A stretch of 64,000 nucleotides of DNA, taken from the IMG/VR virus record IMGVR_UViG_3300019373_000007, positions 32,001 to 96,000 of that record. One strand, 5' to 3'. A program made the translations under genes and the position numbers. The notes below the pieces were generated by a model. The model ran no database searches and was not told the DNA's origin. It was given only the letters and a program-made list of their open reading frames with translations. Shown here piece by piece: positions 8,495-35,800 of this stretch; within the stretch, counting starts at the first letter, position 1; each line of letters starts with the position of its first letter. Origin of the DNA: a virus. Lineage: Duplodnaviria > Caudoviricetes.

Positions 8495-8521
8495 AAGTCA
8501 TTACATATGACTTTCAAATTA

Positions 8522-8591
8522 AGGCGAGATGAAATTTTAGATATGTCCAGGTAGAATTTTACGTCAACATATCTAGAATTTCATCTCGCCT
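8522..8591. terminator. long inverted repeat between convergent genes (probable bidirectional terminator)
   Basis: AGGCGAGATGAAATTTTAGATATGT ... ACATATCTAGAATTTCATCTCGCCT. Confidence 0.7.
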
Positions 8592-8625
8592 ATTTTGCAT
8601 TAGTGAGATTATAGTCGATCAGCTG

Positions 8626-17294: not shown

Positions 17295-17299
17295 CATAG

Positions 17300-17470
17300 T
17301 TGACAAACTCAGGTTTCTGTCATACGATATAGATGTGAAGAAATCCCAAATCAACTATAACTGAATGAAATGGGTCGCAACTCCTTATGGAGTCTGACTA
17401 TAGATCAAAGCGCTGCAGTTGATTTAGGATTTCTTCACAACTTTTCTTAGATCAAGCGGCGCTTTTCTAT
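17300..17470 (+). promoter_or_regulatory. sigmaA promoter plus structured leader with alternative hairpins
   Basis: TTGACA-17-TACGAT; 17334-17356 pairs with 17417-17439; 17407-17429 pairs with 17445-17465, followed by a U-rich tract. Confidence 0.7.
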
Positions 17471-17484
17471 TTGGAGAAACAGTA

Positions 17485-18141
17485 ATGAAAAGATACGTCA
17501 AATCGACAAATAGGACAATATCGCTAGCTGATATATTATCAAAGATCGATTACTTTGTATTAGTTGATAGTTGTGATAACTTGAACTTGTCTGTTATAAA
17601 CGCACCAGATGAAGTTGATGATGATTCGGAATACTATGCTACTCTTCCTGACAGCCGCCTTGCTGAGCTCAGTGATAATGAGCTCCATTCAATCAATGAC
17701 CCTGAGATACTTGATCGTCTTGTACACTTGTGCAAGGAGCGACTTTCGTCTGATCAGCTTGCGATCTATAGGGAAGAAGCTAAAAAGAAAGTTCCACTAG
17801 ACGATGCAGCTAAAGTTGATCTGCTTCGCATGTTTAGTCAATGCAACAAAGTTTTCATAGAAAATCGTCGTAAAAATAATGATTTTAGGGCTACTTATGA
17901 ACTGACTGATGACGACATATTGGCTATCTTACATAATCTGAAGAAAAGCGACTTCGATTCCAGAACAAAAAGCATCAACTACGGGCACTTAGGTAATAAC
18001 TTAGTAATCATGCATCCGAACATTCTTATCCCACAGAAGGACATCATAGTAGGAGCTAACTTGTATATCAAAATTGATATTGATGAATCTACACATTCCG
18101 GTGTAGCGTTCATCTCAATACACCCTAGACAATTCGACTAG
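17485..18141 (+). CDS. MKR-leader protein with C-terminal MqsR-like (RelE-fold) toxin domain
   Basis: MKRYVKST; RRKNNDF..LTDDDILAILHNL...DF...LYIKIDI...VAFISIH resembles MqsR-family toxins. Confidence 0.6.
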   Translation: MKRYVKSTNRTISLADILSKIDYFVLVDSCDNLNLSVINAPDEVDDDSEYYATLPDSRLAELSDNELHSINDPEILDRLVHLCKERLSSDQLAIYREEAKKKVPLDDAAKVDLLRMFSQCNKVFIENRRKNNDFRATYELTDDDILAILHNLKKSDFDSRTKSINYGHLGNNLVIMHPNILIPQKDIIVGANLYIKIDIDESTHSGVAFISIHPRQFD

Positions 18142-18208
18142 ACGTTACAACCTAAAATAACAACAGAAGAAGACTCATGCAGATGAAATGCCAGAATGAA
18201 GTCTTCAC

Positions 18209-18268
18209 ACCGCAGTTCGTATTTTACAAGCCTTCACGAAATCCTGCGGTATATAAATCAAACACTAT
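18209..18268 (+). promoter_or_regulatory. preQ1-I-like riboswitch aptamer, copy 1
   Basis: stem ACCGCAG/CTGCGGT, loop TTCG...ATC, A-rich tail ending ACTA; upstream of queF. Confidence 0.6.
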
Positions 18269-18305
18269 TGATCTTAAGGCCTTCATATGTAACAAAATCG
18301 AGTAA

Positions 18306-18360
18306 GATCTTGCTAGTGTGAAGGGACGCACAGTTTCTAAGCATTAGCAAGGTCTTTTTA
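18306..18360 (+). terminator. terminator-like hairpin in queF leader
   Basis: AGATCTTGCTAGTG ... CATTAGCAAGGTCT followed by TTTT. Confidence 0.5.
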
Positions 18361-18374
18361 TATTGCGGTAATTC

Positions 18375-18430
18375 CCGGTGTTCGTATTCATTCCTTGACG
18401 AAATCCACCGGCTTTACAAAATAAAACTAT
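18375..18430 (+). promoter_or_regulatory. preQ1-I-like riboswitch aptamer, copy 2
   Basis: stem CCGGTG/CACCGG, loop TTCG...ATC, tail AAAATAAAACTA just before the queF RBS. Confidence 0.65.
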
Positions 18431-18451
18431 ATTTCAAGGAGGTTCACAAAC

Positions 18452-18961
18452 ATGAGTGAACAAAGAGAACAGGATTTATCCGAAGTAACATTATTAGGTA
18501 ATCAGAACACTAAGTACAAGTATGATTACGACCCATCTATCTTAGAGAAATTCGAGCGCAAGTTTGATGGGTCTGTTAAGGATGAGCAGATTGTCAGCTT
18601 GGATTGCTTTGAGTTTGCATCTAGATGTCCGAAGACCGGGCAGCCGGATTTCGCAACCATCCATATTTCTTACATTCCGAATAAATATATGGTAGAATCT
18701 AAGTCATTGAAGCTCTATCTCTTTAGTTTCCAACAGCATGGAGACTTTCATGAATCTTGCGTTCATATGATCATGCAGGATTTAATAGATCTGCTGGATC
18801 CATGCTATCTGGAAGTTTATGGTGACTTCAATAGCCGCGGCGGTATCTCAATCTTGCCATTCAGTGTATACGCTGATGAGGATCACATGGACATCAAGAA
18901 TGCTCGTCAGCTTACTATGATGCAGTATAGTGTAGAGCATAGACCGAGAACAGGCAGATAA
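18452..18961 (+). CDS. queF: preQ0 reductase (NADPH-dependent 7-cyano-7-deazaguanine reductase)
   Basis: [10 protein letters not shown], QueF motif [17 protein letters not shown]. Confidence 0.95.
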
Positions 18962-18976
18962 TGAGGAAAGCTTCGC

Positions 18977-19030
18977 ATGCAAGAAGAATGGGGATCCGTT
19001 GTCGGATATGATGGAATGTACGAGAACTGA
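18977..19030 (+). pseudogene. NUMOD4 endonuclease N-terminal remnant
   Basis: MQEEWGSVVGYDGMYEN* matches the NUMOD4 start pattern EEW..I.GY.G.YE. Confidence 0.5.
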
Positions 19031-19062
19031 GATATCGTTATAGTATTCAAGGAGGACTAATC

Positions 19063-19560
19063 ATGAAAATTTATGTAAGAGCAATGTCCTTGCCGAAAGC
19101 AGAAGCAATCAAGCGTGCGGGATACTATGCTGACGATATAATGGAGCATGTGATCAAGATAGTTGTTTATCATGACATTCGACATAAACAGATAGATCAC
19201 TGGATCGGAGAAATTTCAGGATGGCTGAAGTTTGTTGATGGATTGACTGTGAAGCCGTCTAATAGGCATCTCAAGCCTGCGATGATTCGTGATACTACTT
19301 TCGGTCCTATGGGAGATCACTTACAAGACTATGTAGGTTCGTTAGAGATGTTCCAAACAGCTAATAAGCGCGGGAAGTTCAACTACGAAGATAAGGAATC
19401 TTACCCATACAGAGAACCTGACGCACAGACCGCAAGCGATCTCATGAACATATGTTCTCATCTGATTGGAGTAGCCATTCCGATGCTCTGCGAAAAGAAA
19501 GACTACACAAGAGAAGATTATGTGCAAGTACTACAAGATGTATTCAGAGCATACATCTAA
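19063..19560 (+). CDS. MKR-type leader protein, DUF29-like
   Basis: MKIYVRA then MSL...IMEHVIKIVVY....HWIGEI. Confidence 0.55.
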   Translation: MKIYVRAMSLPKAEAIKRAGYYADDIMEHVIKIVVYHDIRHKQIDHWIGEISGWLKFVDGLTVKPSNRHLKPAMIRDTTFGPMGDHLQDYVGSLEMFQTANKRGKFNYEDKESYPYREPDAQTASDLMNICSHLIGVAIPMLCEKKDYTREDYVQVLQDVFRAYI

Positions 19561-19648
19561 TAACATTTGACACTACGATAGAATTAGAAACATGACTACA
19601 AGCCTGTTTCTATGCAGGCTTGTTTTATTTGTAAAGGAGGAAAATGCC

Positions 19649-20413
19649 ATGAAAAAGGCATTGATTTTAAATTCAGGCGGCATGGATTCTACAACTTTAG
19701 TAGGCATGGCTGTAGATAAGTACGGAGCAGAAAATATCATCACCGCCTCACTGTATTACGGACAGAAGCATGATAAGGAATTGAAGTGTGCACAGGCAGT
19801 AGCTGAGTACTACGGAGTTCGTCACATTGAAGAAGATATTTCATCTGTTATGAAGTATGCAGGAGAGGTTTGCTCACTTGTAAAGGGGTCGAAGGATGAG
19901 ATCATCGACAAGAGCTACGCAGACCAGATTGCAGAGAATGGAGAAGGCCGAGTAAGCACATATGTTCCATTCCGTAACGGGTTGTTCTTATCTATTGCAG
20001 CTGCTTATGCAGATAGCTTGTTCCCAGGACAGGAATGTGAAATCTGGTATGGAGCTCATGCAGATGATGCTGCAGGCCAGGCTTATGCAGATTGCTCTGA
20101 GGAATTCGCCTCAGCTATGGATCAGGCTATCAATATCGGGACATATGGAAACATTCATGTAGTGAGACCTCTCATCAGCATGAATAAGTCCGAAGTATGT
20201 GCCGAAGGCATCAAGTTAGGCGTTCCATATGAACTTACATGGAGCTGCTATCGCGGAGGAGACAAAGCGTGCGGAACGCGATGTGCAACTTGTTTAGACA
20301 GAATTGAAGCATTTCGAGCTAACGGTGTAATTGATCCTATTGAATACGATGCTGAAATAGATTGGTCCGGATGTAAGGAGATAAATTATAGGAAAGGAAT
20401 TTATCATGATTAA
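19649..20413 (+). CDS. queC: 7-cyano-7-deazaguanine synthase
   Basis: SGGMDS, YGQKH, YVPFRN, YADC, TWSCY..ACG..CATC..R. Confidence 0.95.
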   Translation: MKKALILNSGGMDSTTLVGMAVDKYGAENIITASLYYGQKHDKELKCAQAVAEYYGVRHIEEDISSVMKYAGEVCSLVKGSKDEIIDKSYADQIAENGEGRVSTYVPFRNGLFLSIAAAYADSLFPGQECEIWYGAHADDAAGQAYADCSEEFASAMDQAINIGTYGNIHVVRPLISMNKSEVCAEGIKLGVPYELTWSCYRGGDKACGTRCATCLDRIEAFRANGVIDPIEYDAEIDWSGCKEINYRKGIYHD

Positions 20414-21482
20414 TTCTGAGCTATCTGCCATCTCAGCTGAAGGAGAGCAATGGAGACAGATTGAAGATTTCTCTAGATACTGGATATCTGATTTAGGACG
20501 AGTTTATGACATTAAGTTGCATAAGATAGCTCGGACAGAAGTTGAATATGATGGATACATCTTAGTTAGTATGAGGAATGATAAGAACGAACCTAAAACT
20601 AAGAGAATTCATCGTCTTGTTGCCGAAGCATTTCTGCCTGATTGGAATCCTAACTGGCCCTGGACAGTTAATCACATAAATGGAAAGAAAGACGATAATA
20701 GTCTTGGCAATCTAGAGATGCTTACTACCAGCGACAACAGTAGGCACTACCAAACTGCAGAATGCTTTGCGGAATCTAGAAAATCTGTGCGTGCTGCTAC
20801 ATCTAAGAAGATGAAAGAAAAATGTAGCGACCCTAACTACGTTGCTGAGATGTCAAAGAGAATGAAAGCAGTATGGAGCGACCCAGCGAATCGAGAGATG
20901 TATGTACAGTGCCTCTATCAACGGCATTCTGACCTAAATGAGAGGAAACAGATTTCAGAGAGGATGAAAGAAGTGTGCTCAGATCCGAACTATCGAAAAG
21001 GAATGTCAGATCGTCAAAAGGAAAATTGGAATCGACCTGAGTATCGACAGGCAATAACATCTAAAAATCAAGACCGCATGTGGGTTCATGGCAGTCAGTC
21101 AGAGCGATGGATACATTCTCATGAGTTGGCTTCGTATTTGGAACAAGGCTACTTAGAAGGGAGATTGCCGAACACCATGAAACCGACTACAGCAGGCAAG
21201 ATAAGGATATCAAGGGGCAATGAGGGTAAGTTCGTCAATCCTTCTGAATTGGACAACTATCTCAGTTCTGGATGGAGATTGGGAAAATCAAAGAGACAGA
21301 TGGTACAATGTGTAGAGACGGGAGAGGTGTTCTCTAGCGTTGAAGAGTGTGTTTCTGCATTTGGTGCTACAGTAGATCTCATTCGAGCTCGATGCAAAGG
21401 GACAGCTACTACTTTCAGAAAGCTCAAGGAATTTACTTTCCGTTTCTATGAAGGCGAAGATCCATTCGCTGATATGCGATAA
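20406..21482 (+). CDS. free-standing HNH homing endonuclease (NUMOD4-HNH with DNA-binding repeats)
   Basis: EQWRQI..YWISDLGRV, IHRLVAEAF, VNHINGKKDDN..NLE; C-terminal VQCVETGEVF. Confidence 0.85.
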   Translation: MINSELSAISAEGEQWRQIEDFSRYWISDLGRVYDIKLHKIARTEVEYDGYILVSMRNDKNEPKTKRIHRLVAEAFLPDWNPNWPWTVNHINGKKDDNSLGNLEMLTTSDNSRHYQTAECFAESRKSVRAATSKKMKEKCSDPNYVAEMSKRMKAVWSDPANREMYVQCLYQRHSDLNERKQISERMKEVCSDPNYRKGMSDRQKENWNRPEYRQAITSKNQDRMWVHGSQSERWIHSHELASYLEQGYLEGRLPNTMKPTTAGKIRISRGNEGKFVNPSELDNYLSSGWRLGKSKRQMVQCVETGEVFSSVEECVSAFGATVDLIRARCKGTATTFRKLKEFTFRFYEGEDPFADMR

Positions 21483-21545
21483 TAATTAACTAATAACCGG
21501 GCGAGCAGGTTCATGCTCGCCTGTACACTATAAGGAGGTAGAAAT

Positions 21546-21983
21546 ATGTATACAGTGCAAACACGCGTCACATTTGAAGCAGCGCACCGCCTGTATGACG
21601 TAGATACGTATTCAAAAGAGTGCTCTGACTCTGTTCACGGGCATTCTTACGCAGTTACCATCGTTGTGGGTCGTGAGGATCTCAACGATGCAGGAATGGT
21701 GATTGACTTCAAGTTACTGAAGAAGGTAATCAAAGAAGTGATTGAAGACCAGTACGATCATTCACTCATCTTGCGAACATGCGATCCGCTACTAGCTGCA
21801 TTTGCTAAGTTAGCTCCAGAGCAGAAGATGAATGTTACTACTGAAAGCCCAACAGCAGAGTGGATGGCTGAGTCATTTGCAAGCTTATTGAGCTGTCGAT
21901 TCGCTTTGGAGGATGACGAGTTGCGTGTGCAGTCAGTTTCCGTTCAGGAAACGGAGAACAACATCGCCACATGGCGAGCATAA
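21546..21983 (+). CDS. queD: 6-carboxytetrahydropterin synthase
   Basis: FEAAHRL..C..HGHSY..GMVIDF..DH..PTAE..VQET. Confidence 0.95.
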   Translation: MYTVQTRVTFEAAHRLYDVDTYSKECSDSVHGHSYAVTIVVGREDLNDAGMVIDFKLLKKVIKEVIEDQYDHSLILRTCDPLLAAFAKLAPEQKMNVTTESPTAEWMAESFASLLSCRFALEDDELRVQSVSVQETENNIATWRA

Positions 21984-22001
21984 TTGAAAGGTGTATGTAG
22001 T

Positions 22002-22475
22002 ATGGTAAGCAAGAATGAAATCATGAAATTAGGTGTAGATCGCGCATTCGAGACGATGTCTCAGGGAATCGGAGGGCCATTCGGTGCAGTCATTGTGAAG
22101 GACGGAGAGGTCATCTCTGTAGCTTCTAATTCTGTGCTAGGTGATCATGACCCGACAGCTCACGCAGAGGTCAACGCTATTAGAGAAGCATGCAAGAAAT
22201 TAGGTACACATGACCTGACAGGATGTGAGATCTTTGCCTCAGGAGCCCCGTGTCCGATGTGTCAATCAGCCATCATCTGGGCAAACATCAAAAAGGTGTA
22301 TACTTCCGGAACAGTAACAGACGCTGCTGCTATCGGGTTCCGAGATGATTACATCTACAAGTTCATTGAAGGAGGATGCTTAGATTCTTCTGTATTAGAG
22401 ACGGAGCAGCTGGATCGGACACCTGCAGTGGAGTTATACACTGCTTATCATGAAATGAATAAAGAAATGTATTAA
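22002..22475 (+). CDS. nucleoside/guanine deaminase (CDA fold, GuaD-like)
   Basis: GGPFGAVIV, DPTAHAEVNAIR, PCPMC, IGFRDD. Confidence 0.9.
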   Translation: MVSKNEIMKLGVDRAFETMSQGIGGPFGAVIVKDGEVISVASNSVLGDHDPTAHAEVNAIREACKKLGTHDLTGCEIFASGAPCPMCQSAIIWANIKKVYTSGTVTDAAAIGFRDDYIYKFIEGGCLDSSVLETEQLDRTPAVELYTAYHEMNKEMY

Positions 22476-22495
22476 GGAAGGAGAAGCAACATCGT

Positions 22496-22879
22496 ATGAA
22501 AGAATATGTTACGTGGGATGAAGTCAGAGATTTCATCTACGGAAAAGTAGCTCCGATGCATCTAGACGAGGCATTTACTGGAGTTTACGGCTTGCCTAGA
22601 GGAGGTTTGTGCTTAGCAGTAATGATATCTCATGCGCTTAACATTCCGATGCTAGCTGCACCAGCTCCGGGATGCTTGATTGTAGACGACATATGTGATT
22701 CCGGAGAATCTCTTGTGCACTATTACAAGAATTCTTCAGGTGAGCGTCAGAATTACCGTATCGCTACTCTTTACTACAAGGAGAACGCGCTTGGAGTAGT
22801 CCCTGACCTGTATGATTTCGTCAAACGTGATAACTGGGTTGTTTTTCCGTGGGAATGCGATCCAATTTCACTAATTTAA
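22496..22879 (+). CDS. type I purine phosphoribosyltransferase (Gpt-like)
   Basis: GLPRGGL, LIVDDICDSGES PRPP loop, WVVFPWE. Confidence 0.9.
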   Translation: MKEYVTWDEVRDFIYGKVAPMHLDEAFTGVYGLPRGGLCLAVMISHALNIPMLAAPAPGCLIVDDICDSGESLVHYYKNSSGERQNYRIATLYYKENALGVVPDLYDFVKRDNWVVFPWECDPISLI

Positions 22880-22889
22880 GGAGGATTCT

Positions 22890-23558
22890 ATGAAAATCAA
22901 CGAGATTTTTTGCTCGCTCAACGGAGAAAGCGCCAGAACAGGGAAGAGAACCGTCTTCGTTCGTACATTCGGATGTAATCTGCGCTGTAGCTACTGTGAT
23001 ACAATGTATGCAGTTGAGGGCAACGACTATACTGACATGACTATCGAGGAGATCAAGGAGAAAGTCGACAGTTTTCACTGTAATCGTGTTACCCTCACAG
23101 GAGGAGAGCCTATGATCCAGAAGGATATGATGGATCTCATCTACCTACTCGACGGGGATTGCTGCAGGCTCTACGACATAGAGATAGAAACTAACGGCGC
23201 AGTTGATTTGACTGAGCTTGTTAAAGCTAGAAGGGATAGGGAGATCAGCGATTCACTCCTCATCACTATGGACTGGAAATGCCCTACAAGCGGAATGTTA
23301 GATGAGATGGTTGAGAATAACTTGTCTCTGCTATCTGACACAGACGTAGTGAAATATGTTGTTGGATCCATAGCTGACTTAGACGAAGCAATGCGAGTGC
23401 ATTCACTTACTCGAGCTCAACTCTACTTGAGCCCTGTATTCGGCAAGATTGAGCCAAAAGAAATCGCAGAGTACTTAGTAAAGGGTGAAATCAACGACGT
23501 TACACTACAAATCCAGCAGCATAAGGTGATTTATCCGCCAGACATGAGAGGGGTATAA
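22890..23558 (+). CDS. queE: 7-carboxy-7-deazaguanine synthase (radical SAM)
   Basis: [29 protein letters not shown]. Confidence 0.95.
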
Positions 23559-23563
23559 GAACT

Positions 23564-24148
23564 ATGGGATACAAGAAAATAGATACAGATAAGATTGAAC
23601 AGTTGACACGCGAATTCCTGATTGCGTTAGGGGATGACCCGGATAGAGAAGGATTGAAGAAAACTCCTCACCGCGTTGCGAAGATGTGCAATGAGATCTT
23701 TGAGGGAATGACTTATACAAACGCAGAAATTGGCACTATGTTCAATACTTGCTTCGAAGATGTAGAGACTGGCGACCTAGTAGTAGAGAGCAACATTCCG
23801 ATACATTCATTTTGTGAACATCATCTCATGCTCATGTACGATATGTCTGTAGCTATCGGATACCTGCCTAAGGGACGTGTAATCGGTCTCAGCAAGCTAG
23901 CTAGGATTGCTGATATGGTAGGCAAGCGCCTTCAACTACAGGAACGCATTGGATCCGACATTGCTGATATCTTACAAGACGTCCTAGGCACTGATGACAT
24001 CATTGTAGTTATCGAAGGCAAACATGGATGCATGACAGCACGTGGAATCAAAGCTAGAGAAGCAGTTACTAGAACAGCTACTTTGCGTGGCAAGTTCAAG
24101 TATGATTCTGACCTTCGTTCTGAATTCTACTCACTGATTGAGAATTAG
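23564..24148 (+). CDS. folE: GTP cyclohydrolase I
   Basis: [36 protein letters not shown]. Confidence 0.95.
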
Positions 24149-24202
24149 CATCGCACCTTACATAACGTCAAGTGAAAACAAGCAACCCTGAGGAGGTTTA
24201 TT

Positions 24203-24496
24203 ATGAAGCGATACGTAAGAAGCTCATTCTTAGATGATGACGATGAATTTGATGATATCGACACATGGGACTACAGCAGAGAAGAAGTCGTTCCTGCAAT
24301 AATGAAAGCACTTGTAGTGAAGAAACCAATCGCAGATATCATCTACGAGTGGTATGATGCAGAAGATGCATGGGAAGACCATGAATCACTTGAGGATTTC
24401 ATTTCTTATCTTAAAGATGACATCTACGACATGGCTGATGCATGCGATGATGAAGCACTTCGTGATAAGGTACTTGTAGCCCTTGCAGGAAAGTAA
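24203..24496 (+). CDS. small acidic MKR-leader protein
   Basis: MKRYVRSS start; very acidic; ACCTTACATA upstream. Confidence 0.7.
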   Translation: MKRYVRSSFLDDDDEFDDIDTWDYSREEVVPAIMKALVVKKPIADIIYEWYDAEDAWEDHESLEDFISYLKDDIYDMADACDDEALRDKVLVALAGK

Positions 24497-24542
24497 ATCG
24501 TCATCGGAGCAACTAGCTTGACTACACACAAGTCTAATCCAT

Positions 24543-24570
24543 CAAGGCCGCTGAATTTAGCGGCCTTTCT
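24543..24570 (+). terminator. intrinsic terminator
   Basis: AAGGCCGCT-loop-AGCGGCCTT followed by TCT. Confidence 0.6.
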
Positions 24571-24667
24571 CTATGATCTACAACACCTTATATTTATTCA
24601 GAGATACCTAGCGAGCTAGTTTGCTAGGATGTAATAAATCAGACAGTAAAGAAAAGGAGAATAGATA

Positions 24668-25129
24668 ATGGGAAAACTTATTTATGACGGAGTCGTTTAC
24701 GCAGGCGGCGTTGTAGTAGATTCAGCACTCAGCACAACAAGTACCAACCCGGTGCAGAATAAAGTAGTAGCAGAAGCAGTTAATACGATAAATACACATT
24801 TATCTAATAAAGCGGATAAGGTTTGGACGATTGCAGGCGGTACCGGAACCGTTGGCGGAGCCGTAACTGTGCCGACAACTGGAGTTAGCGAACTTCTGAT
24901 TGCTGGTGCACTTAACATTAACGGACAGGCGGAAATAAGCGGTTCGGTAATCATTCCTATGCATTTTCTAGCACAAGATAGAAATTTCCGCATACAGCTT
25001 GGTTACCATTCGGAAATTGGACAAATGCAGGTTTCTTATATTAAGAACAATGGCGCATTCTATATCACTGATGAGTATTATTCCATCGGCACTATTGCCG
25101 CACGTGCTATGGTTGTGTACTATCGTTAA
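24668..25129 (+). CDS. short tail-fibre / receptor-binding-like protein
   Basis: VDSALSTTSTNPVQNKVV motif common in phage fibre proteins; beta-rich C-terminus. Confidence 0.55.
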   Translation: MGKLIYDGVVYAGGVVVDSALSTTSTNPVQNKVVAEAVNTINTHLSNKADKVWTIAGGTGTVGGAVTVPTTGVSELLIAGALNINGQAEISGSVIIPMHFLAQDRNFRIQLGYHSEIGQMQVSYIKNNGAFYITDEYYSIGTIAARAMVVYYR

Positions 25130-25399
25130 TCAGTTAATCGCCCATATAGATAGAGATTTCCACGCCAGTTTGTACCGTATCATCTAATTGTGTATTTTAC
25201 CGACAGGCAGAAAGTAAATTAAAGGTAATCTTTATACAATTAAGTAATCTTGCCTACAGGGCATCATTATTACATCTTTATCTTATATAGCTTTTCAATT
25301 AGATTAGGGGTGAGTGGCATCATTGAACCGCCCGCCCCTCTCTTTTAAATTATAGAGCTCCGAGCTGTCGTAGCTCTTGCATCGAATAGGAGAAACAGA

Positions 25400-26101
25400 A
25401 TGGAAGGATGGCAAGCTGCCCTTACAATACTAGGATCACTTCTCGGGTCAGGAGCGGCATTTGGATTCGCTCAATTTTGGATCACTCGAAAAGATGAGAA
25501 AGAAAAAGAAGCAAAGATAAATCGCGAAGAGGAGATCAAACAAGAGATGCGCGACCATCTCACAGAAGTCAATGCTCAATGGAAAGAGGACTACTGTGAT
25601 AAGAATAGAGAATCTATTGCAGCTCTTCACGACGCGGTAGTGAAGGGTCTGCAAGATCGTGAAGATGTAGGTCGGCAGCGATATGAGGAGCATCATCTCG
25701 CTATTGAGAAAATGGCTTTAGATCATCAGAAGGAATTCCTAGAGCTCAAGAAGGCAATTGATAAGCTTACTTCCAACGAATCTGCAATAACCGAAAGCAT
25801 CGCAGCGTTGACAGAGACACAGACAGCAATAGGTGCAAGTTTGGTCGGACAAGCACATGATCGTATCATGTATCTTTCAGATAGAATTTCAGAGCGTGGC
25901 GGCATAACTAACAAGGAAAAAGCAACCATCAAATCAATGTATGTTCCGTATCGTAAGTTAGGCGGCAACGGAGAAGTGCAGGAAGCAGTTGAGTACATCC
26001 TGACCTTAGAAACAATATCTGAGGATGAAGCACGTAATCGCGATCGAGAAATCAAGAGCAAAGAGCTTGTTGAAATACAGAAGCTCACCCAACCTAAATA
26101 G
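25400..26101 (+). CDS. membrane-anchored coiled-coil protein (lysis-cassette-associated type)
   Basis: N-terminal TM helix; HDRI..L..RG.IT..E...MY.PY..LGGNG motif. Confidence 0.6.
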   Translation: MEGWQAALTILGSLLGSGAAFGFAQFWITRKDEKEKEAKINREEEIKQEMRDHLTEVNAQWKEDYCDKNRESIAALHDAVVKGLQDREDVGRQRYEEHHLAIEKMALDHQKEFLELKKAIDKLTSNESAITESIAALTETQTAIGASLVGQAHDRIMYLSDRISERGGITNKEKATIKSMYVPYRKLGGNGEVQEAVEYILTLETISEDEARNRDREIKSKELVEIQKLTQPK

Positions 26102-26186
26102 AACAACTAGAAGAGATCGCAAACAGCGGTCTCATTACTATGTTCAAATCGTTATGTGATCATTCAGTTGTTGGGGAAGTAAACAA

Positions 26187-26240
26187 CCGCAGTTCGGTAA
26201 CCAACCCATTCCTGCGGATTATAAATCAAATACCAAAAGG
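26187..26240 (+). promoter_or_regulatory. preQ1-I-like riboswitch aptamer, copy 3
   Basis: CCGCAG-TTCG...TTC-CTGCGG, then A-rich tail running into AAGGAGG RBS of yhhQ. Confidence 0.65.
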
Positions 26241-26253
26241 AGGAAATCTAGAG

Positions 26254-26976
26254 ATGATTTCAAAGACCAAGAGTCTTGTAGCGGACTATAAACTGCTGCT
26301 TGATAGCGTTCCAGCGCTGGTTACTACTATTTTTTGTATTGGCTCATGCTGGATGAATATTGCAGCCGGCAAAGTTATATTCAATGCATTCAACGTTGCA
26401 ATTACTGGGGGATTTTTAGCCTCTTTCTTGCCGTTCTTGTGCTTAGACATGGTGTCAAAGCGATTCGGTGCACGAGCTGCTATTCTGCTAAACTTGTTAT
26501 CTGCTGCATGTAATACAGTATTCGTTTTAGGCCTTAGCCTTGTTGCAGCTATTCCTACCGAACAAGATTACACTTCGTTCAATACTGTTTTAGGCGGCGT
26601 TTGGTTCATTACATTGTCTAGCATTGTAGCATTTGTTCTTTCCGGTGTAGCTAATTCTCTTCTTAACTCAGCGATCGGAAAGCTCTTTAACAATAAAACA
26701 AGTGCCATTGAATTTGCTACTCGAAGTTTTGTTTCTACATTCGTAGGACAAGCATTGGATAATTTCATCTTCATTGCAGGTGTATATGTTATCTTCGCTC
26801 CTATCTTCTGGGGAATGGATCCATTGCCAATCAAGACTTGCTTAGGAACTGCTATTGTCGGCGGATTCTTCGAACTGCTTTGCGAAGTTGTCACCGCTCC
26901 GATTGGTTATCGAGTAGTTAAGAATTGGGAACGGGATGGAATAGGAAGAGATTACATAGAGAAGCATAAAGCATAG
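26254..26976 (+). CDS. yhhQ: queuosine-precursor transporter (YhhQ/VUT family)
   Basis: multi-TM; NIAAGK, FLCLD...FG, S..AF, RSFVSTFVGQALDNFIF. Confidence 0.85.
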   Translation: MISKTKSLVADYKLLLDSVPALVTTIFCIGSCWMNIAAGKVIFNAFNVAITGGFLASFLPFLCLDMVSKRFGARAAILLNLLSAACNTVFVLGLSLVAAIPTEQDYTSFNTVLGGVWFITLSSIVAFVLSGVANSLLNSAIGKLFNNKTSAIEFATRSFVSTFVGQALDNFIFIAGVYVIFAPIFWGMDPLPIKTCLGTAIVGGFFELLCEVVTAPIGYRVVKNWERDGIGRDYIEKHKA

Positions 26977-27144
26977 CGTTAAAACAGCGGCCATGTTTTT
27001 GTCTATGCTAAGGACGCTCCGGAGGATACTGTAGAGTATGTTTACACATGCTACAAGCATTCTGGTAGATATAGAGAACTCGAGGCTAAATGGCTAGATA
27101 AGTTTAATTCTGCTCACAAGGATGACAGATTCTAAAGAAAGGGC

Positions 27145-27299
27145 TTGACGAATTCGCATCCACATCTTATAATATAGATGCGAAGTCAACTTACAATTGA
27201 ATTAAGAATACTAGCACACTAGTGCTTGTAGATAGTAAAACTGCTGATCTTTCATAGGTTGACTTCGCAAAAGAAACCAGATCGGCAGTTTTATTTTAT
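27145..27299 (+). promoter_or_regulatory. sigmaA promoter plus structured leader with crossing alternative stems
   Basis: TTGACG-17-TATAAT; 27179-27193 pairs with 27255-27269; 27236-27250 pairs with 27279-27293, then U-rich tract. Confidence 0.7.
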
Positions 27300-28696
27300 A
27301 TGAAATTACATCAGAAAACCAAGAAACTTTAGTTTCTTGGATGAATGATGCAGATTTAAGAAAGGAGGTGAAATAGAAAGATGGCTACATACTGTGTACA
27401 AAGCAATGTGATTCGAGGTCTTACAAAAGAACAATACTCCCTGCTTCGAGAAATGTGTCAATATTCAAACAACTTGTATAATGTTGCTCTCTATAATATT
27501 CGACAACATTACTTTAACACAAAGCAGTTTTTGACCTATGAAAGTAATTATCACGAATGTAAGACTAATGAAAACTATGCTTTGTTGCAGGCAGGAGTAT
27601 CTCAACAGATAATGAAAGTTGTAGACAGAAGTTTCAAATCTTTCTTTAATCTGATTAAGAAGTGCAAACTCGGAGATTATAGATACCACGATGTCAACAT
27701 TCCGCATTATCGAAAGAAAGGTGGATTGTTTGGACTAATTCTTTCTACTAATTCAATTGCTATCCGCAACGGCAAGTTTATGATTCCAATGAGCCGTACT
27801 TTTCGTGCTTTACACCCTGATATCAAAGACTTTGAAGTTACGTTTCCAGGACGATTAAAGAACAAGACTATTAAAGAAGTTAGGATTCTTCCGTACAACG
27901 ACGGAAGGTACTTTAAGATTCAATATGTGTATGAAGTAGAACAGGAATCTACAAATCTTGATAGAAATAACATGCTATCAATAGACCTCGGCATAGATAA
28001 TTTAGCAACTTGTGTTTCAACTATCGGGACACCGTTCATAATAGACGGACGTAAACTTAAATCAATCAACCACCGATGGAATAAAGAAATCGCAAGACTT
28101 CGTTCAATATCTATGAAACAAGGTCTTAAGACTACTGCTTGTATTCAAAGAATTACAACAAAAAGAAATAATCAAGTCAACGACTCTATCAAGAAGTCAG
28201 CAAGATATGTCGTTAACTATTGCATCAATAACAACATTGGAACTTTGATTGTTGGATACAATGCAGATTTCAAGAGGAACTCCAATCTTGGTAAAACAAA
28301 TAATCAGAATTTTGTTCAGATACCTTTAGGTGATTTGCGCCAACAGTTAGAGTTCTTGTGCTGGAAATATTCTGTTGAGTACATTGAACAAGAAGAAGCA
28401 TACACATCAAAAAGCAGTTTTCTTGACAACGATGAACTTCCCGAATACAAAGCGGAACAGCCTTACCAAGGGACATTCAGCGGAAAGCGCATAAAGAGAG
28501 GACTATATCAATCAAAAAATGGCACAATCCTCAATGCAGATGTAAATGGTGCTGCAAACATACTAAGAAAATGTAAGCAGAATGTCGATTTCGACAAACT
28601 GTGTAAGGGACTTTTGGCGAGTCCAGTAAGAATAAGGATATCTTAGATATCAAACTTCTTACGAATCCCATTGGCTTTAGCCGATGGGTACGTCAA
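27300..28696 (+). mobile_element. IS200/IS605-family (IS1341-type, tnpB-only) element
   Basis: left hairpin CCAAGAAACTTTAGTTTCTTGG; right hairpin CCCATTGGCTTTAGCCGATGGG ending ..TCAA; left boundary approximate. Confidence 0.8.
27381..28646 (+). CDS. tnpB: RNA-guided endonuclease TnpB
   Basis: NLYNVALY, SIDLGIDNLA (RuvC-I), QEEAYTSK, NADVNGAANI (RuvC-III). Confidence 0.92.
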   Translation: MATYCVQSNVIRGLTKEQYSLLREMCQYSNNLYNVALYNIRQHYFNTKQFLTYESNYHECKTNENYALLQAGVSQQIMKVVDRSFKSFFNLIKKCKLGDYRYHDVNIPHYRKKGGLFGLILSTNSIAIRNGKFMIPMSRTFRALHPDIKDFEVTFPGRLKNKTIKEVRILPYNDGRYFKIQYVYEVEQESTNLDRNNMLSIDLGIDNLATCVSTIGTPFIIDGRKLKSINHRWNKEIARLRSISMKQGLKTTACIQRITTKRNNQVNDSIKKSARYVVNYCINNNIGTLIVGYNADFKRNSNLGKTNNQNFVQIPLGDLRQQLEFLCWKYSVEYIEQEEAYTSKSSFLDNDELPEYKAEQPYQGTFSGKRIKRGLYQSKNGTILNADVNGAANILRKCKQNVDFDKLCKGLLASPVRIRIS

Positions 28697-28708
28697 TGGG
28701 AGGTAGCA

Positions 28709-29074
28709 ATGAAACGAGTAATCAATCAAGATGCTATTTTAGGAATGGCTAACTTGAATCCACGTAGAACTAACTTGCCTGTAATCATATGGGCAGATCA
28801 TAATGGAGTAGATCGTTCAGTATCGCATAGAAACAGCCCTCGAATCAAAATAAGTAAAGATGAGCATAGCGTCTCTGTTTCTATTGAAGAGCATCCTAGA
28901 ATCCTAGCTAGAACAAACGACATCCCTCAGAATGTCATGACGATGATTCAAGAAGGCATCGACTACGTTGCACGAAATTATGATATCTTTTTGAAGCATT
29001 ACTTAGACAATGATTTCTCTTTCGACGATGACGATCTGAAAGAGGCACTTCGTGAACGTGGCGACTACAAGTAA
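28709..29074 (+). CDS. MKR-leader protein with DUF4160-like domain
   Basis: MKRVINQDAILG then MANL.P.RT.LPVIIW...H..PRIK...YV..NY..FLKHY. Confidence 0.55.
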   Translation: MKRVINQDAILGMANLNPRRTNLPVIIWADHNGVDRSVSHRNSPRIKISKDEHSVSVSIEEHPRILARTNDIPQNVMTMIQEGIDYVARNYDIFLKHYLDNDFSFDDDDLKEALRERGDYK

Positions 29075-29087
29075 GGGAGGACAACAT

Positions 29088-29252
29088 ATGATTGAAATAC
29101 AAGGACAATACAACACAGCAAGAGTATTCACAGATAGTGCAGATGAAGCTCCTCAGGCCTACAGGCCGATTGATGAAATCATAGCTAACATCGAGCCTAC
29201 ATGTGATATTATCAACACAATCAAGCCGATCTACAACTTCAAGGCATCATAA
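29088..29252 (+). pseudogene. rtcB: RtcB RNA ligase remnant with large in-frame internal deletion
   Basis: RtcB-like N-terminus MIEIQGQYNTARVFTD fused to C-terminus DEAPQAY..I..II..I.PT....IKPIYNFKA. Confidence 0.8.
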
Positions 29253-29256
29253 ATGA

Positions 29257-29286
29257 TAGCGCAGTCAAACAAAGCTGCGCTATTTC
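29257..29286 (+). terminator. intrinsic terminator
   Basis: ATAGCGCAG-loop-CTGCGCTAT followed by TT. Confidence 0.6.
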
Positions 29287-29330
29287 TATGTAAGAATCGT
29301 TATATTCTGTAAGAGAAGGAGGTAGACGCA

Positions 29331-30836
29331 ATGTCATTAGAATTAGAGAATTTATCTGCTCTTTCCATTGGGCAGCTAGTTAATTTTAAGGAAGTAAAGC
29401 CTACAGAGGTAGTAGACTACTTTGCGGATCGCATCGAAAAGAGAAATCCTTCTATCAACGCATTTGTTTACACTAAGATAGACGAAGCGATGGAAGTAGC
29501 TAAGGAGCAAGAGAAGAAAATCATGTCCGGAATGTCTCCGGGAGTATTCGCTGGAGTTCCGGTTTGCTTGAAGGACTTTTTGCCTTCTAAGGAGGGATGG
29601 ACAAACAGTCATGGCGGTGTGCGAGCACTTATCCAGAGAGACCCAGAGGACTCCGAATTCACTAAGGCAGCAGAAGCAATGGGTGCTATTCCTATTGGAA
29701 AGGCCAACGCACCTGCTTTCGCTTTCAGAGGAATCACAGACAATCAGATGTATGGTCCTACTAGCACACCATTCAAGCCAGGATACAATTCGGGTGGATC
29801 GTCAGGAGGAACTGCTGCTGCAGTCGGCGACGGATTGGTTCCGTTAGGAGAAGGGTCAGACGGAGGCGGATCCATTAGAATACCATCCGCATGGTGCGGT
29901 TGCTTTGGATTCAAGCCGTCTGTCGGAGCTGTTCCTAGCGTATGCAGACCTGATGCTTGGACTGCAACACATCCATTCTGCTTCAATGGTGCAATTACGC
30001 GTACGGTAGAAGACAGTTTAGCTATATTCCGGATGATGTGTCACTACGACCTACATGATCCATTTAGTGTGCCTAGCTCAGTTATCTTCAACAAGAATAG
30101 TTCCTTTGTAGCTAACCAGACAATCCGCATTGGCCTTGTCAGAGACTTCGGAGTATTTCCAGTAGAAGATGAACTCTGGGAAGTAATCAAGAGAGCTGCT
30201 AAGATGGCTGAATCTTCTTTATCTGCTAACATCATTGTAGAAGAAGTGGATCCAGATAGCTTGTCACTTGCTCCATTCACCGCAGAGGACTTAGCTGAGA
30301 TGTGGTGCAGGATGATCTCTATCGATACATCCATTGACATGAACCTGTGGGCAAGATCCGGTAAGGTAGATATGCGTGACCCTGCTCTAGAGTATCAGCT
30401 CACTCCTGAATTCATTCATTGGGATAAGGTTGCGTCTACTCAGACAGGAATCATGGACTATCGCACATTCAACGAAATGCGAACTGCTGTCCTTGATATG
30501 CACATTGACTTATTCAGGAAGTACGATTTCATCATCAGCCCAGTTACATGTTGCAACCCTGTCCCTAATGATACATCTGAGAAGGTAACAGCAGGTCCTG
30601 CTACAATCAACGGACGGAAAGTAGATCAAGCAATCGGCTTCTGCGAAACATTCTTACAGAATTTCATCGGATATCCTGCAGCTTCTATCCCAGCAGGATT
30701 GTCTGCCGACGGCTTGCCTATCGGAATGCAGATTGTAGGAAAGAAGTATTCAGACCACAAGCTGTTCCAGCTGTCTCGAATCTACGAGAACGTCAACCCA
30801 TGGAGCTACTCTATCCCATTCAATAGAGCAATCTAG
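29331..30836 (+). CDS. amidase, amidase-signature (GatA-like) family
   Basis: GVPVCLKD, GGSSGG, GSDGGGSIRIPSAWCG, GLPIGMQIVG. Confidence 0.93.
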   Translation: MSLELENLSALSIGQLVNFKEVKPTEVVDYFADRIEKRNPSINAFVYTKIDEAMEVAKEQEKKIMSGMSPGVFAGVPVCLKDFLPSKEGWTNSHGGVRALIQRDPEDSEFTKAAEAMGAIPIGKANAPAFAFRGITDNQMYGPTSTPFKPGYNSGGSSGGTAAAVGDGLVPLGEGSDGGGSIRIPSAWCGCFGFKPSVGAVPSVCRPDAWTATHPFCFNGAITRTVEDSLAIFRMMCHYDLHDPFSVPSSVIFNKNSSFVANQTIRIGLVRDFGVFPVEDELWEVIKRAAKMAESSLSANIIVEEVDPDSLSLAPFTAEDLAEMWCRMISIDTSIDMNLWARSGKVDMRDPALEYQLTPEFIHWDKVASTQTGIMDYRTFNEMRTAVLDMHIDLFRKYDFIISPVTCCNPVPNDTSEKVTAGPATINGRKVDQAIGFCETFLQNFIGYPAASIPAGLSADGLPIGMQIVGKKYSDHKLFQLSRIYENVNPWSYSIPFNRAI

Positions 30837-31984: not shown

Positions 31985-32058
31985 ATCGTTATGTAGCATA
32001 ACATCTAGTAACATCCAAACATTGCAAAGATTTATATTCAACATACAGGAGGTCAATT

Positions 32059-32866: not shown

Positions 32867-35800
32867 ATGAAGCTATTCAGTGCAGCGCAGATCGATAAGA
32901 TCAACGCTATAGCTGCTAAGAGCAACGAATCGCTCAAACCTGCAGCGTCTGGTGGAAAGCCTGCAAGCATCAACGATGAGCTGAACCAGATAACAAAAGA
33001 AGTTTTAGATTACTTTAAGGATTCTCCTGCAATCTTGATTAAGAATGCGAAAGAGTTACATGACTACGTGGACAAATGTATCGAAGCTGGCTACGCCGGC
33101 ATCGATACAGAGACCACCGGTCTTGACCGAATTCGCGACAAGATTGTAGGAGCTTCTTTATATTATCCAGGCGGAGTAGAATGCTATATTCCGTCTTGCC
33201 ACTTGCTTCCTATATTTGAGAAGCCATATCCTAACCAGTTGACATATGAAGTGATCGGGCAGGAATTTCAGCGGTTAGCTGATAATCATGTGCGGTTGAT
33301 ATTTGCGAATGCAGACTTCGACTTAGCGATGATCTACAAAGACCTGAAGGTGGACCTTGTTCCTGCTTGCTTCTTCGATGTAATCCTAGCTTGGCGATGC
33401 TTACGCGAAGATGAAAAGGACAATACATTGAAGGGCCTGTATGCTAAATACGTCATGAAAGGCCAGATAGAAGCCAAGAAGTTCCGAGATTTCTTCTCAC
33501 CAAAGCTGTTTCCTTACTCTAAGCCTGAAGTAGCAGGTCTTTATGCAGCAAACGATGCTAAGATCACATATGAATTATTCGTTTGGGAGCTCCAGTACAT
33601 CACTAAATCTAATCCTAAGTGTCAGAAGAATCACTTAGAGAAGATAGCAGACCTCATTTGGAATGTAGAGATGCCAATGATCCGTGTATGTGCTCACCTA
33701 CATAGAGTCGGAGTCATGCTAGATACATCAGTGATTCCTGCATTACATGAGCGATATGCTGATAATCTGAAAGCTGCTCAGGAAAAACTAGCTAAAGATA
33801 TTCAGCACTTGATTGACGAAAGAGATGTTCCAGGAAACAGAAAGAGACCGTTCCGAACCGGGGCTGATTTCAACGCAAATAGCCAGCCACATGTGAAGTA
33901 CTTGCTAAATACACTGCTTGCACTAGACGTAGATGGAACCGGTAAGGAAGTATTGAACGAAGTAAAAGATCCGTCAGCTAAGGACATCTTACAAGTACGC
34001 AAGGGAGTCAAGTTGCTAGGCACATACATTGATAAGATGCCTAACATTGCCGGTCCTGATGGTAGAGTTCATTGTACCTTCAAGAGCATTGGCGCAGATA
34101 CAGGCCGCATGTGCATCGCTAAGGGCACCCCTATTACTGTCCTCAACGGAACAAAGAACATTGAGGACATTGTCCCCGGTGACTTAGTTTACTGTTATGA
34201 CGAACGACGCAGTATACAGTTATCTCGAGTAAAGAATCTATGGCTCACTGGAAAAGACCGCGAGTGCGTAGACGTTAAGTGGCGGAGTAACGGATCCGGA
34301 GATATTGGGCATCTTATCTGTACTCCGGAACACAGAATCTTGAAGGAAGATGGCACATGGTGCAGAGCTGATGAACTCAAGTGCTATGATAGGTTAGTTA
34401 GTCTGCGACAGACATCCGACGGTGACGAGAATAACATACCGTTGAATCATGCTGTGCAGTCAGTAGCACCCGCAGGTAAATTCGATGTATATGATATTGA
34501 AGTAGAAACATATCATAATTTCATCGCAAGTGAGATTTGCGTGCATAACTCATCCGCCGATCCGAACTTACAGAATATACCGTCTAAGATGCATGATATC
34601 AGACATATGTTCCGTGCTAGCAACGGATACGTAATGATGTCATCTGACTTCTCTCAGCAGGAGCCGAAGCTCACAGCATTCTGTACCGGCGATCAACGAA
34701 TGATTGAAACATTCCAGACCGGAAAGGACATCTATGCAACACTTGCTTCTATCGGTTTAGGATTTCCATATGAGGAGTGCTTGGAGTTCAATCCTATCAC
34801 GCACGAGAATCAGCCCGAAGGTAAAGCCCGGCGGGGTATAGGCAAGGTGTTAGTATTGGGTAGACCGAGAGGTTAAACATCTTGCCGATAACCAATAATT
34901 TATGCCCCCTCAGTAGAAGCCTAAATGTAACAGACTACTGAGTGCAAACTTTGTGAACCTTATTACTCAAGGGTGTGCAGTAGACTAATATAGTAATCGC
35001 AGGAAATGGCGACTAACTGCTGTGCTAACAGGGAAGGCTAATCTAGTTTCTAGAAGTTAATCCTGTGCCAAGCCTTTTACCTTGTTTGGAGCAATTCACA
35101 TACAAGGAGTAAATTACACATGTACGAAGCTTATTTGATAACTAATAACGTCAATGGAAAACGATATGTCGGAATGACTAAGCAAGGCTACTTATCTCGA
35201 TTCAAAGATCATTGGTGGGAAGCTAATCATGACGTAAGGCATCAGTCGATGCTACATCTTGATATGGTCAAATATGGAATCGAATCATTTAGCGTCGAGT
35301 TATTAGAATCCGGCATAGCCGAAGAAGACCATCAAGAGAAGGAGCGCTATTACATTGCTACTTTAGGTACCTATTACGAGAATCCGCTAGGATACAATAT
35401 GACCCTAGGTGGAAACGGAACAGTCGGATATATCTTCACTGATGCTGATCGAGCTAAGGAAAGTGAGCAGCGTAAAGGATGTACATTCAGCGCCGAGCGC
35501 AATGCTCACATCAAAGAGATCATGACAGGCCGAGAGTACAAGCAGGAGTGGAAAGATGCGCTCAGCGCTGCTCGAATGGGCAGATTCGAGGGCGAAGAGA
35601 ATTCATTTTATGGCCGCCATCATTCAGAAGCTACCAAGCAAGCAATACGGAATGCCAACTCTAGCGAACAGATTGAACAGCTAGATAAATCAGGATGTCT
35701 TGTAAATACGTTCTTCAATCTAGCAGACGCAGGGAGATGGGTGTCCGAGAACGTTTCAAAAGCTAAGTACACTACATGTGCCACTCGTATTCGTGAGGTG

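Follow-up and report, generated by a model that had tools for sequence, protein, structure and literature searches.

A conserved, uncatalogued structured leader found twice in one phage genome: a possible transcription attenuator with its own 5' end as antiterminator strand

In trp-type attenuators, a first leader segment takes up the pre-empting segment, which restores termination, and in the lambda pR'-tR' region (6S RNA) the terminator lies within about 100-200 nt of a strong promoter and is read through by Q. In the Bacillus subtilis pyrG leader, extra G residues of the transcript pair with the 5' strand of the terminator. According to the reports cited here, reiterative addition of G at the start of that transcript prevents attenuation (PMC4448216), the pT181 repC leader possesses a 5' antiterminator strand that an antisense RNA sequesters, restoring termination (PMC4878617), and several T4 genes (I-TevI, I-TevII, I-TevIII, segB, mobE, e and soc) have a promoter located between the arms of a hairpin that hides the ribosome site and controls translation, only transcripts started upstream holding both arms (PMC2988022). 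In the 'tug-of-war' arrangement, an RNA structure using no nucleotides of the terminator still lowers termination; this structure, in most cases an aptamer with bound ligand, directly precedes the terminator (bioRxiv 10.64898/2026.06.17.733018). The DNA considered here is a 64,000-nucleotide stretch (hereafter the window) corresponding to positions 32,001 to 96,000 of the Caudoviricetes record IMGVR_UViG_3300019373_000007, a virus record of 134.5 kb that is 89% complete by its own estimate. At 27145-29074, the window carries a promoter, a structured leader, a tnpB element and a gene for a protein of 121 amino acids (aa). The leader is a real, conserved and uncatalogued structured element present twice in this phage, and we give a probability of roughly 0.4 to the reading that it precedes a phage accessory gene as its 5' leader and acts as a transcription attenuator, in which the own 5' end of the RNA would be the antiterminator strand.

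The leader at 27145-27299 is designated W2 and its other copy, at 17300-17484, W1, the L-numbers being used for loci from related viral contigs. Along the RNA of W2, strands A, B, A' and B' succeed one another and a U tract comes next, with the following parts:

27145-27173, + strand: sigma-70-type promoter TTGACG-17-TATAAT, matching the consensus at 11 of 12 positions
about 27145-27160, + strand: A0, the -35/spacer part of this promoter, complementary to strand A
27179-27193, + strand: strand A, pairing with A' over 14 uninterrupted base pairs (bp) from the predicted transcription start (+1)
27209-27230, + strand: variable small hairpin in the connecting loop L1, present in both the minimum free energy (MFE) and centroid structures
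27234-27250, + strand: strand B, the 5' arm of the terminator stem, forming 17 bp with B'
27255-27269, + strand: strand A', the partner of A, inside the terminator hairpin
27279-27295, + strand: strand B', entering the T-rich run or U tract at 27289-27299

The predicted +1 is G27180, the seventh nucleotide past the -10, and strand A begins there. The A/A' repeat extends over 15 nt with 93% complementarity, the B/B' repeat runs overall over 27229-27250 / 27279-27300 (22 nt, 82%) with an uninterrupted core of 17 bp, and a further inverted repeat flanks the -10 (27150-27165 / 27172-27187, 81%). An earlier note on this DNA, made from the sequence alone, had described the promoter, the crossing order of the strands with their coordinates and a small internal hairpin, all of which were recovered at those places. 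The TAGAT that it pointed out before B is present in W2 (27229-27233) but is no conserved motif, being found in only three of the six leaders known at present; since it pairs with the interrupted U tract, it belongs to an extension of the terminator stem rather than forming a separate motif. Likewise, the ATAGATG start is shared by W1 and W2 as proposed, but the other leaders read ATAGTTG, AATAGTG or TAAATTG, and it is a promoter discriminator in this phage. The view of W2 as a second copy of the W1 architecture is borne out by the matching order of the parts in the latter:

17300-17484, + strand: leader copy 1 (W1), same part order as W2
17300-17328, + strand: promoter TTGACA-17-TACGAT, 10 of 12
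17335-17356, 17407-17416, 17417-17438 and 17456-17465: strands A (from +1 at G17335), B, A' and B', then the U tract
17485-18141, + strand: open reading frame (ORF) of 218 aa, with a ribosome site before its start

In this copy the A/A' repeat covers 17331-17356 / 17417-17442 (26 nt, 92%) and the B/B' repeat 17407-17416 / 17456-17465 (10 nt, 90%).

Compared with the described systems, such a leader is most likely a new variant of terminator/antiterminator control. As in the pT181 and trp attenuators, it would fold either a terminator or an earlier-forming helix with an upstream segment; unlike in them, the pre-empting role would fall to the very 5' end of the RNA, which does not overlap the base of the terminator, there is neither antisense promoter nor leader peptide, and the candidate for a third partner is the untranscribed half of the promoter. 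As in T4, two arms flank the -10, namely A0 in the -35/spacer and A from +1 (p 0.0015-0.061 for their complementarity in five leaders), and the candidate leader L332 precedes an HNH-type ORF (recognised by eye), as T4 hairpins precede endonuclease genes; in contrast to T4, the arm pairs here with an antiterminator strand and would act on termination, and the ribosome site is downstream of the U tract, in neither arm. The pyrG leader shares with the present model that the 5' end of the transcript would decide on attenuation, but its G residues are non-templated and added at low CTP, whereas the 5' strand is here templated, 10-26 nt long and different in each copy. Unlike the tug-of-war structure, the present one places one of its strands within the terminator hairpin, and it has no apparent ligand pocket. 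Finally, as in lambda pR'-tR', a terminator must be passed to express the downstream genes, and what differs from that region as generally known is the conserved pairing of the 5' end with the terminator, no search for a Q-like gene or site having been made.

Regarding the reality of the element, the two leader stretches have folding z-scores of -4.24 and -5.42, and none of 200 shuffles folds as well. When 40 promoter-like sites (at least 10 of 12, both strands, whole 134.5-kb genome) were ranked for a long-range helix at the predicted +1, W1 and W2 took the first two ranks, with helices of 15 and 13 bp for the two leaders, followed by 11 and 11 bp and by 8 bp or less for all the rest; the third of these helices (11 bp, genome position 133858) is in apparent coding sequence, without terminator, and was discarded. 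A crude scan of the genome for any two crossing helices of 9-10 bp followed by a T run found three cases against 2-8 in ten shuffles, and missed W2; crossing by itself is thus no evidence, and it is the anchoring to the promoter and the helix lengths that carry the signal. Neither leader shows DNA similarity to cultured phages.

The same layout is common to five leaders, W1, W2, L001, L011 and L020, with L332 as a compact sixth candidate, the four loci outside the window being fragments of related phages. In each of the five, helix A starts from the predicted +1, B abuts A', and B' is followed by the U tract and then by the ribosome site; the promoters match 10-12 of the 12 consensus positions, and an uninterrupted helix of 10-21 bp begins in every one exactly at the seventh nucleotide past the -10. 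The helix sequences differ and the pairing is kept, in agreement with the conserved structure with divergent sequence put forward in the earlier note: the first ten positions are all paired within a leader against 4-9 of 10 between leaders, cognate A:A' duplexes reach -21 to -32 kcal/mol where non-cognate ones reach -3 to -12, and cognate B:B' duplexes -14 to -22 kcal/mol against -3 to -14. In a model-guided alignment of four sequences, both sides are changed in 15 of the 19 A:A' pairs and 97.3% of the cells pair, a level reached by none of 500 shuffles and compared with 32-47% of cells in slid controls; covariation, the absence of which would have spoken against an RNA class, is thus present. 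A MAFFT alignment of the four leaders left the helices unaligned and was not used for the structure.

Covariance models reach the same loci to unequal degrees. A model built from L011 alone (R1) has W1 as its best match in the 64-kb window (25.1 bits, expectation value E 0.0033), reporting neither window copy with default filters and both only with filters off, and also finds L020 and L001 (19.4 and 17.9 bits). A model built from W1, L020 and L001 (R2) recovers the left-out L011 with 58.2 bits (E 4.9e-09). W2 scores 12.7 bits with R1 (E 2.4, rank 6 of 8) and 11.9 bits with R2 (E 1.1, rank 10 of 14); these weak matches fall on exactly the right coordinates but are not significant. The membership of W2 rests on the layout and on its orthologous position, and it is the most divergent member. 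Another R1 match in the window, at 8490-8615, proved to be a long hairpin between convergent ORFs and no leader. This hairpin (8513-8596, arms of about 25 bp), which gives a weak leader-model match on both strands, is probably a two-way terminator. In Rfam, no family was matched at gathering score in the window, and only chance-level matches (E up to 10) were obtained in both leaders, as anticipated for a possibly undescribed RNA class; besides, no Rfam class and no conservation of the unpaired regions among leaders point to a riboswitch, and a keyword search of the open-access literature, supplements excluded, found no description of the leader.

The relatives also place the leader with respect to genes. 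From the relatives of the 121-aa protein, 41 loci were obtained, some being the same contig twice. The leader comes directly before a homologue of the 121-aa gene in L001 (identical to L003 and L015; 51% protein identity) and in L011 (75%), at a distance of 12-25 nt in these two loci free of insertion sequence (IS), which is what the earlier note had expected of IS-free relatives. In L020, the leader precedes a 164-aa ORF, homologous to the window ORF just upstream of W1 (E 7e-08), and then a member of the 121-aa family; directly upstream of this leader promoter, L020:330-394 shows five tandem 13-nt units (TACTAAGAAATTC), possibly regulator binding sites. Leader-free homologues exist as well, e.g. 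in L012 and in L010, where a promoter lies 30 nt before the gene. With a leader before some homologues and none before others, the cassette is modular and not tied to one gene, the genes following leaders being of the 121-aa family, 218-aa, 164-aa and HNH endonuclease types.

Searches with sequence patterns led to one further candidate member. The promoter-plus-5'-strand pattern has at least 106 distinct matches, and 13 of those listed have a +1 helix of at least 9 bp, namely three known leaders, nine loci with a second promoter and L332. The latter, with an A helix of 10 bp, 19 bp of B:B' and a U tract about 20 nt before an ORF taken as an HNH-type endonuclease by eye alone, was the top and sole R2 match among the 100 listed promoter-pattern loci (26.3 bits, E 0.17 in 825 kb; E 0.017 in 81.5 kb with filters off) and is a candidate sixth member of the family. 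In the nine viral loci (L267, L268, L286, L292, L305, L338, L345, L355 and L362), the RNA starts with GTCAAGAGG and pairs about 100 nt further on with CCTCTTGAC, where a second consensus promoter has its -35 region; the -35 of the first promoter bears the same flank, giving tandem A-tract-flanked promoters with palindromic -35/+1 arms, an arrangement that may be an evolutionary relative of A0/A/A'. The promoter-plus-ATAG pattern has at least 120 matches in viral contigs, and of the six listed that passed the helix filter, L011 and the window copy are convincing, the other four having G-U-rich helices of 8-11 bp. A B'/U-tract pattern picked up three stretches, the L001 contig itself and, behind ORFs, two terminators of the usual short-loop kind. 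Elsewhere R2 added no member: one 61-nt match (E 0.23) was obtained in 16 DnaB-linked and 10 other loci (328 kb), one match (E 0.44) in the remaining 26 loci of the protein family and none in five whole related phage records, this model missing divergent members such as W2 so that its negatives do not establish absence.

In the proposed mechanism, a strong constitutive promoter would start an RNA whose first 10-26 nt (A) would pair with A', about 60-100 nt downstream. A' would at the same time be part of a long intrinsic terminator, with B:B' and the U tract as its base and the 5' part of A' paired with the linker as its upper stem. As A' is made before B', an RNA begun at the cassette's own promoter would fold A:A' first, hindering the terminator and permitting read-through into the gene, while an RNA coming from upstream genes would carry A0, fold A0:A and leave A' free, so that the full terminator could form. 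The switch would hence comprise four segments, A0, A, A' and the terminator, the transcription start lying between the first and the second, and the cassette would block incoming transcription and pass its own transcripts. From these predicted folds, we infer that termination and read-through would both take place at the leader, with transcript origin as the signal. That the whole amounts to a self-contained, factor-free insulator, i.e. a terminator reading where the transcript began by means of a promoter built into a four-segment switch, is a tentative proposal and rather a doubtful one.

Several features are in line with an attenuator. The gene starts 12-30 nt past the U tract in all leaders and no other promoter lies between, so that the gene is reached only through the terminator; in none of the five leaders is there a conventional + strand terminator between the upstream ORF and the leader promoter, so that upstream transcription runs into the cassette. 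The predicted terminator consists of a stem of 9-19 bp and a T run, with extended hairpins of -22 to -27 kcal/mol. It is more than a 10-bp stem that closes a loop of 40 nt, an upper stem being formed where the linker preceding B' pairs with the 5' part of A'. This internal pairing of the terminator 'loop', compared with shuffled loops, gives p 0.006, 0.475, 0.046, 0.154 and 0.036 (Fisher 0.0016), two of the five leaders being individually not significant, and it argues that A:A' and the upper stem of the terminator both draw on A'. Without upstream RNA, the energy of the terminator fold minus that of the A:A' fold is +2.5 kcal/mol in W1, -0.4 in W2, +7.2 in L001, +12.5 in L011 and +1.1 in L020.

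Besides, the promoter region (-42 to -8) is complementary to A, with p 0.061, 0.0015, 0.0035, 0.0035 and 0.0065 in the five leaders (Fisher 1.5e-07) and 0.027 in L332, whereas the control region from -100 to -66 is not (p 0.07-0.85); in W2, the A0:A duplex has -16.8 kcal/mol (p 0.0015 against 2000 shuffles). Upon addition of 70 nt of native upstream RNA, the balance shifts towards the terminator fold in all five leaders, and the MFE fold flips in L001 and L020. This suggests that origin sets the switch, weakly so for the two copies of the window.

A number of points weigh against the attenuator set by transcript origin. Judged against shuffled upstream sequence, only L001 (p 0.003) and L020 (p 0.020) show a significant shift; L011 is borderline (0.060), and neither window copy shows one (0.585 and 0.419). 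In W2 and L332, the terminator fold equals or surpasses the A:A' fold even when upstream RNA is left out. The A0:A duplexes (-10 to -17 kcal/mol) are much weaker and shorter than A:A'; in the members with a long helix, A would be partly free of A0, and A' could displace A0 quickly. The covariation alignment was fitted to the model structure, which favours structure, and its shuffles were mononucleotide; the sample comprises five or six sequences, all taken from a small number of related phage fragments. Above all, A:A' and B:B' have no common nucleotides and could both form at once as a pseudoknot; the gap from B to A' is of 0-6 nt, and the helix lengths vary inversely with a sum of about 29-32 bp in five of six leaders (a hand count over W1, W2, L001, L011, L020 and L332, on which no statistics are possible). 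Abutting strands and inverse lengths fit a stacked pseudoknot better than a balanced switch.

In that alternative, the main one although we consider it doubtful, the two helices together would make a stable RNA of about 115-130 nt, a large H-type pseudoknot with constitutive leaky termination, A and B' being placed side by side on the continuous B-A' strand as a stacked helix of roughly 30 bp. That B abuts A' in all leaders is as such a geometry would have it, and if sterically allowed, the addition of the B:B' energy (-14 to -22) to the A:A' fold would yield the most stable structure. Also in favour of the pseudoknot, the linkers from A' to B' lengthen with the A:A' helix, measuring 10, 14, 16, 17, 20 and 21 nt for helices of about 14, 10, 21, 21, 22 and 29 bp (likewise a hand count). 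Against it, the fit would be tight where a 16-20-nt linker must cross a helix of 21-26 bp. Helices at the start of an RNA are known to protect its 5' end, as in 5'-terminal stabiliser hairpins. In one variant, the buried 5' end would likewise shield the RNA or the read-through mRNA from 5'-end-dependent decay, for which a helix from +1, as found in all five leaders, is what is needed; in another, the long duplex would be an RNase III site. The pseudoknot RNA may also act on its own, but no target in trans was found in the 134.5-kb genome, the best extra matches being of 12-14 nt with E of 0.06 or more. What the pseudoknot leaves unexplained is the complementarity of the promoter region to A as well as the extra pairing within the terminator loop, both of which have a place in the attenuator.

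It is unlikely, in our view, that the same switch is set by a factor acting in trans on A or on the loop, be it an antisense RNA, an RNA-binding protein or an antitermination factor. The layout corresponds to the pT181 scheme, in which a 5' strand pre-empts the terminator (PMC4878617), and the two folds are near-isoenergetic, within 2.5 kcal/mol, in three of five leaders (W1, W2 and L020). However, the leaders have no conserved promoter on the opposite strand, with just 9/12 matches at non-equivalent places, which speaks against attenuation by antisense RNA of the pT181/pIP501 type; genome sites complementary to A or A' do not exceed chance; and the unpaired regions keep no common sequence by which a protein or ligand could recognise them, nor did Rfam give any match. 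Autoregulation by the product is itself unlikely since the downstream genes differ. A type III toxin-antitoxin system (ToxIN-like) was also rejected, no tandem repeat being present in either leader (three arrays in 17000-29500, none there), the downstream genes being mutually unrelated and many 121-aa homologues having no leader. Last, a DNA-level element, which could be a mobile element of the miniature inverted-repeat kind or a palindromic operator surrounding the promoter, is highly improbable: the inverted repeats are long and almost free of mismatches (22 bp in L020), an inverted repeat flanks the -10, the cassette is before some gene homologues and missing before others, and in the nine other phage loci a like repeat coincides with the -35 of the second promoter, but the repeats differ completely between copies, even in one genome, with pairing including G-U kept, which indicates selection on RNA pairing rather than recent transposition or one operator, and strand-specific features (helix from +1, U tract, place before the ribosome site) are constant.

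Returning to the copy at 27145, W2 is now parted from its gene by a mobile element, the neighbourhood being as follows:

27300-28696, + strand: tnpB-only element of the IS200/IS605 family, its left junction set by comparison with L011
27319-27340: left-end hairpin of the element
27381-28646: tnpB
28667-28688: right-end hairpin, the element ending with ...GTCAA at 28696
28697-29074, + strand: ribosome site GGGAGG and the 121-aa ORF (28709-29074), of an unannotated phage protein family

Both Pfam matches of the TnpB ORF (OrfB_IS605, E 5.4e-26; Cas12f1-like_TNB, E 7.6e-07) and the IS-free L011 confirm this separation, which had been proposed in the earlier note. The left junction comes right after TTTATTTTAT (27290-27299), a string common to L011; across the site, L011 reads ...GCTTTATTTTAT-aaagagaatgatatATG and the window ...GTTTTATTTTAT-[IS]-tgggaggtagcaATG. 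From this comparison, the element spans 27300-28696 and is seated in the U tract, so that the breakpoint given previously was right, the left junction being uncertain by 1 nt. Among 600 candidate stretches, 574 encode relatives of TnpB, the identity reaching 75% at best, in assemblies of Bacillota; the right end ...GTCAA is kept in the six closest of the nine relatives compared (L179-L182, L184 and L185), the other three ending with ...TCAA. The element has no tnpA and no terminal inverted repeats, bears subterminal hairpins at both ends and is inserted directly 3' of a T-rich word, which is usual for the IS200/IS605-type family. TnpB, subterminal hairpins, a conserved right end and no target duplication are the traits by which it was assigned to the tnpB-only class.

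The insertion left the terminator stem and U run of W2 intact, and tnpB has the orientation of the leader. With W2 unbroken, it is now tnpB that stands between the leader and the 121-aa gene, which is, from the comparison of these sequences, the gene that W2 preceded before the insertion. No promoter-like site was found by promoter scan inside the left end of the element, so that tnpB probably depends on the leader promoter, on which it would ride. A tnpB element in a terminator U tract behind a strong promoter can borrow transcription. Contigs of four public runs span both junctions, none having the IS-free joint; being contigs only, they show the DNA arrangement, and the two 'RNA' libraries among these runs may hold DNA.

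The proteins encoded after the leaders remain without a name. The 121-aa protein has 54 relatives, none bearing one; at E of 0.01 or less, Pfam has no match for it or for the 218-aa protein, PHROGs gave nothing for it, and tblastn against cultured phages no match. Its structural model is confident (predicted local distance difference test, pLDDT, 82.9), with no Foldseek match at E of 0.001 or less and a best VIA-align Z of 4.6. The label 'DUF4160-like' given to this gene is not supported, DUF4160 being found in none of 35 family members even at E up to 10; a remote relationship of the family to DUF4160 may still exist. In L011, a neighbouring 143-aa ORF has an HIHV motif that is DUF4160-like by eye, yet no Pfam match, and profile comparison of the 121-aa family with this ORF gives a probability of 3.7%. 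Nor does anything in Pfam, PHROGs or fold searches mark the downstream proteins as toxins, contrary to the toxin-like domain suggested earlier. Between the 121-aa and 218-aa proteins, no kinship is detectable (best E 0.085), and no relatives of the 218-aa protein or of the 164/171-aa family were found in viral contigs. Unrelated small ORFs often start with MKR(Y/W)(I/V)(K/H), namely in the window at 17485 and 28709, in L011 at 1659, 2049 and 2540, in L020 at 597 and 1123, and also in L004, L018 and L037; such starts could reflect a shared translation-start module or an N-terminal signal.

As for the genomic setting, the phage encodes replication genes as well as genes pointing to 7-deazaguanine modification. 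A Vut_1/YhhQ-type transporter (26140-26976, Pfam) adjoins W2 on the upstream side, and ORFs resembling QueF, QueC, QueD and QueE by eye follow W1 and the L001 leader (transporter and Que-like positions: window 26140-26976, 18452-18961 and 19592-20413; L001:3563-5878); by their positions, both leaders border a likely 7-deazaguanine module. In L011, the ORF preceding the leader (L011:67-1227) weakly matches the Mom DNA-modification family (E 7.2e-06, slightly short of the cut-off). After the 121-aa gene, the end of a 54-aa ORF (29088-29252) matches the last ~50 residues of the RtcB RNA ligase (E 1.8e-4, below the Pfam cut-off), and its start is RtcB-like by eye; it is probably a remnant after internal deletion. 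Further along the window, an intein splicing domain is present in both the family A DNA polymerase and the clamp-loader ATPase (32867-34876; 40181-42529), with several HNH/NUMOD4 endonuclease ORFs near these intein-bearing genes.

On the more modest readings too, the leader is an uncatalogued structured RNA. If the attenuator set by transcript origin is true, it would be a terminator selective for the origin of the transcript by RNA pairing alone, with no protein or ligand, that is the termination counterpart of the translational control exerted in T4 by a promoter inside a hairpin. Phages would thereby have a means of insulating small accessory or mobile genes from the operons in which these are located, the genes being here those of the 121-aa family, further small ORFs and what is likely a homing endonuclease. 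It would also offer synthetic biology a compact, sequence-programmable part, and could be a general route by which phages plug accessory and mobile genes into foreign operons.

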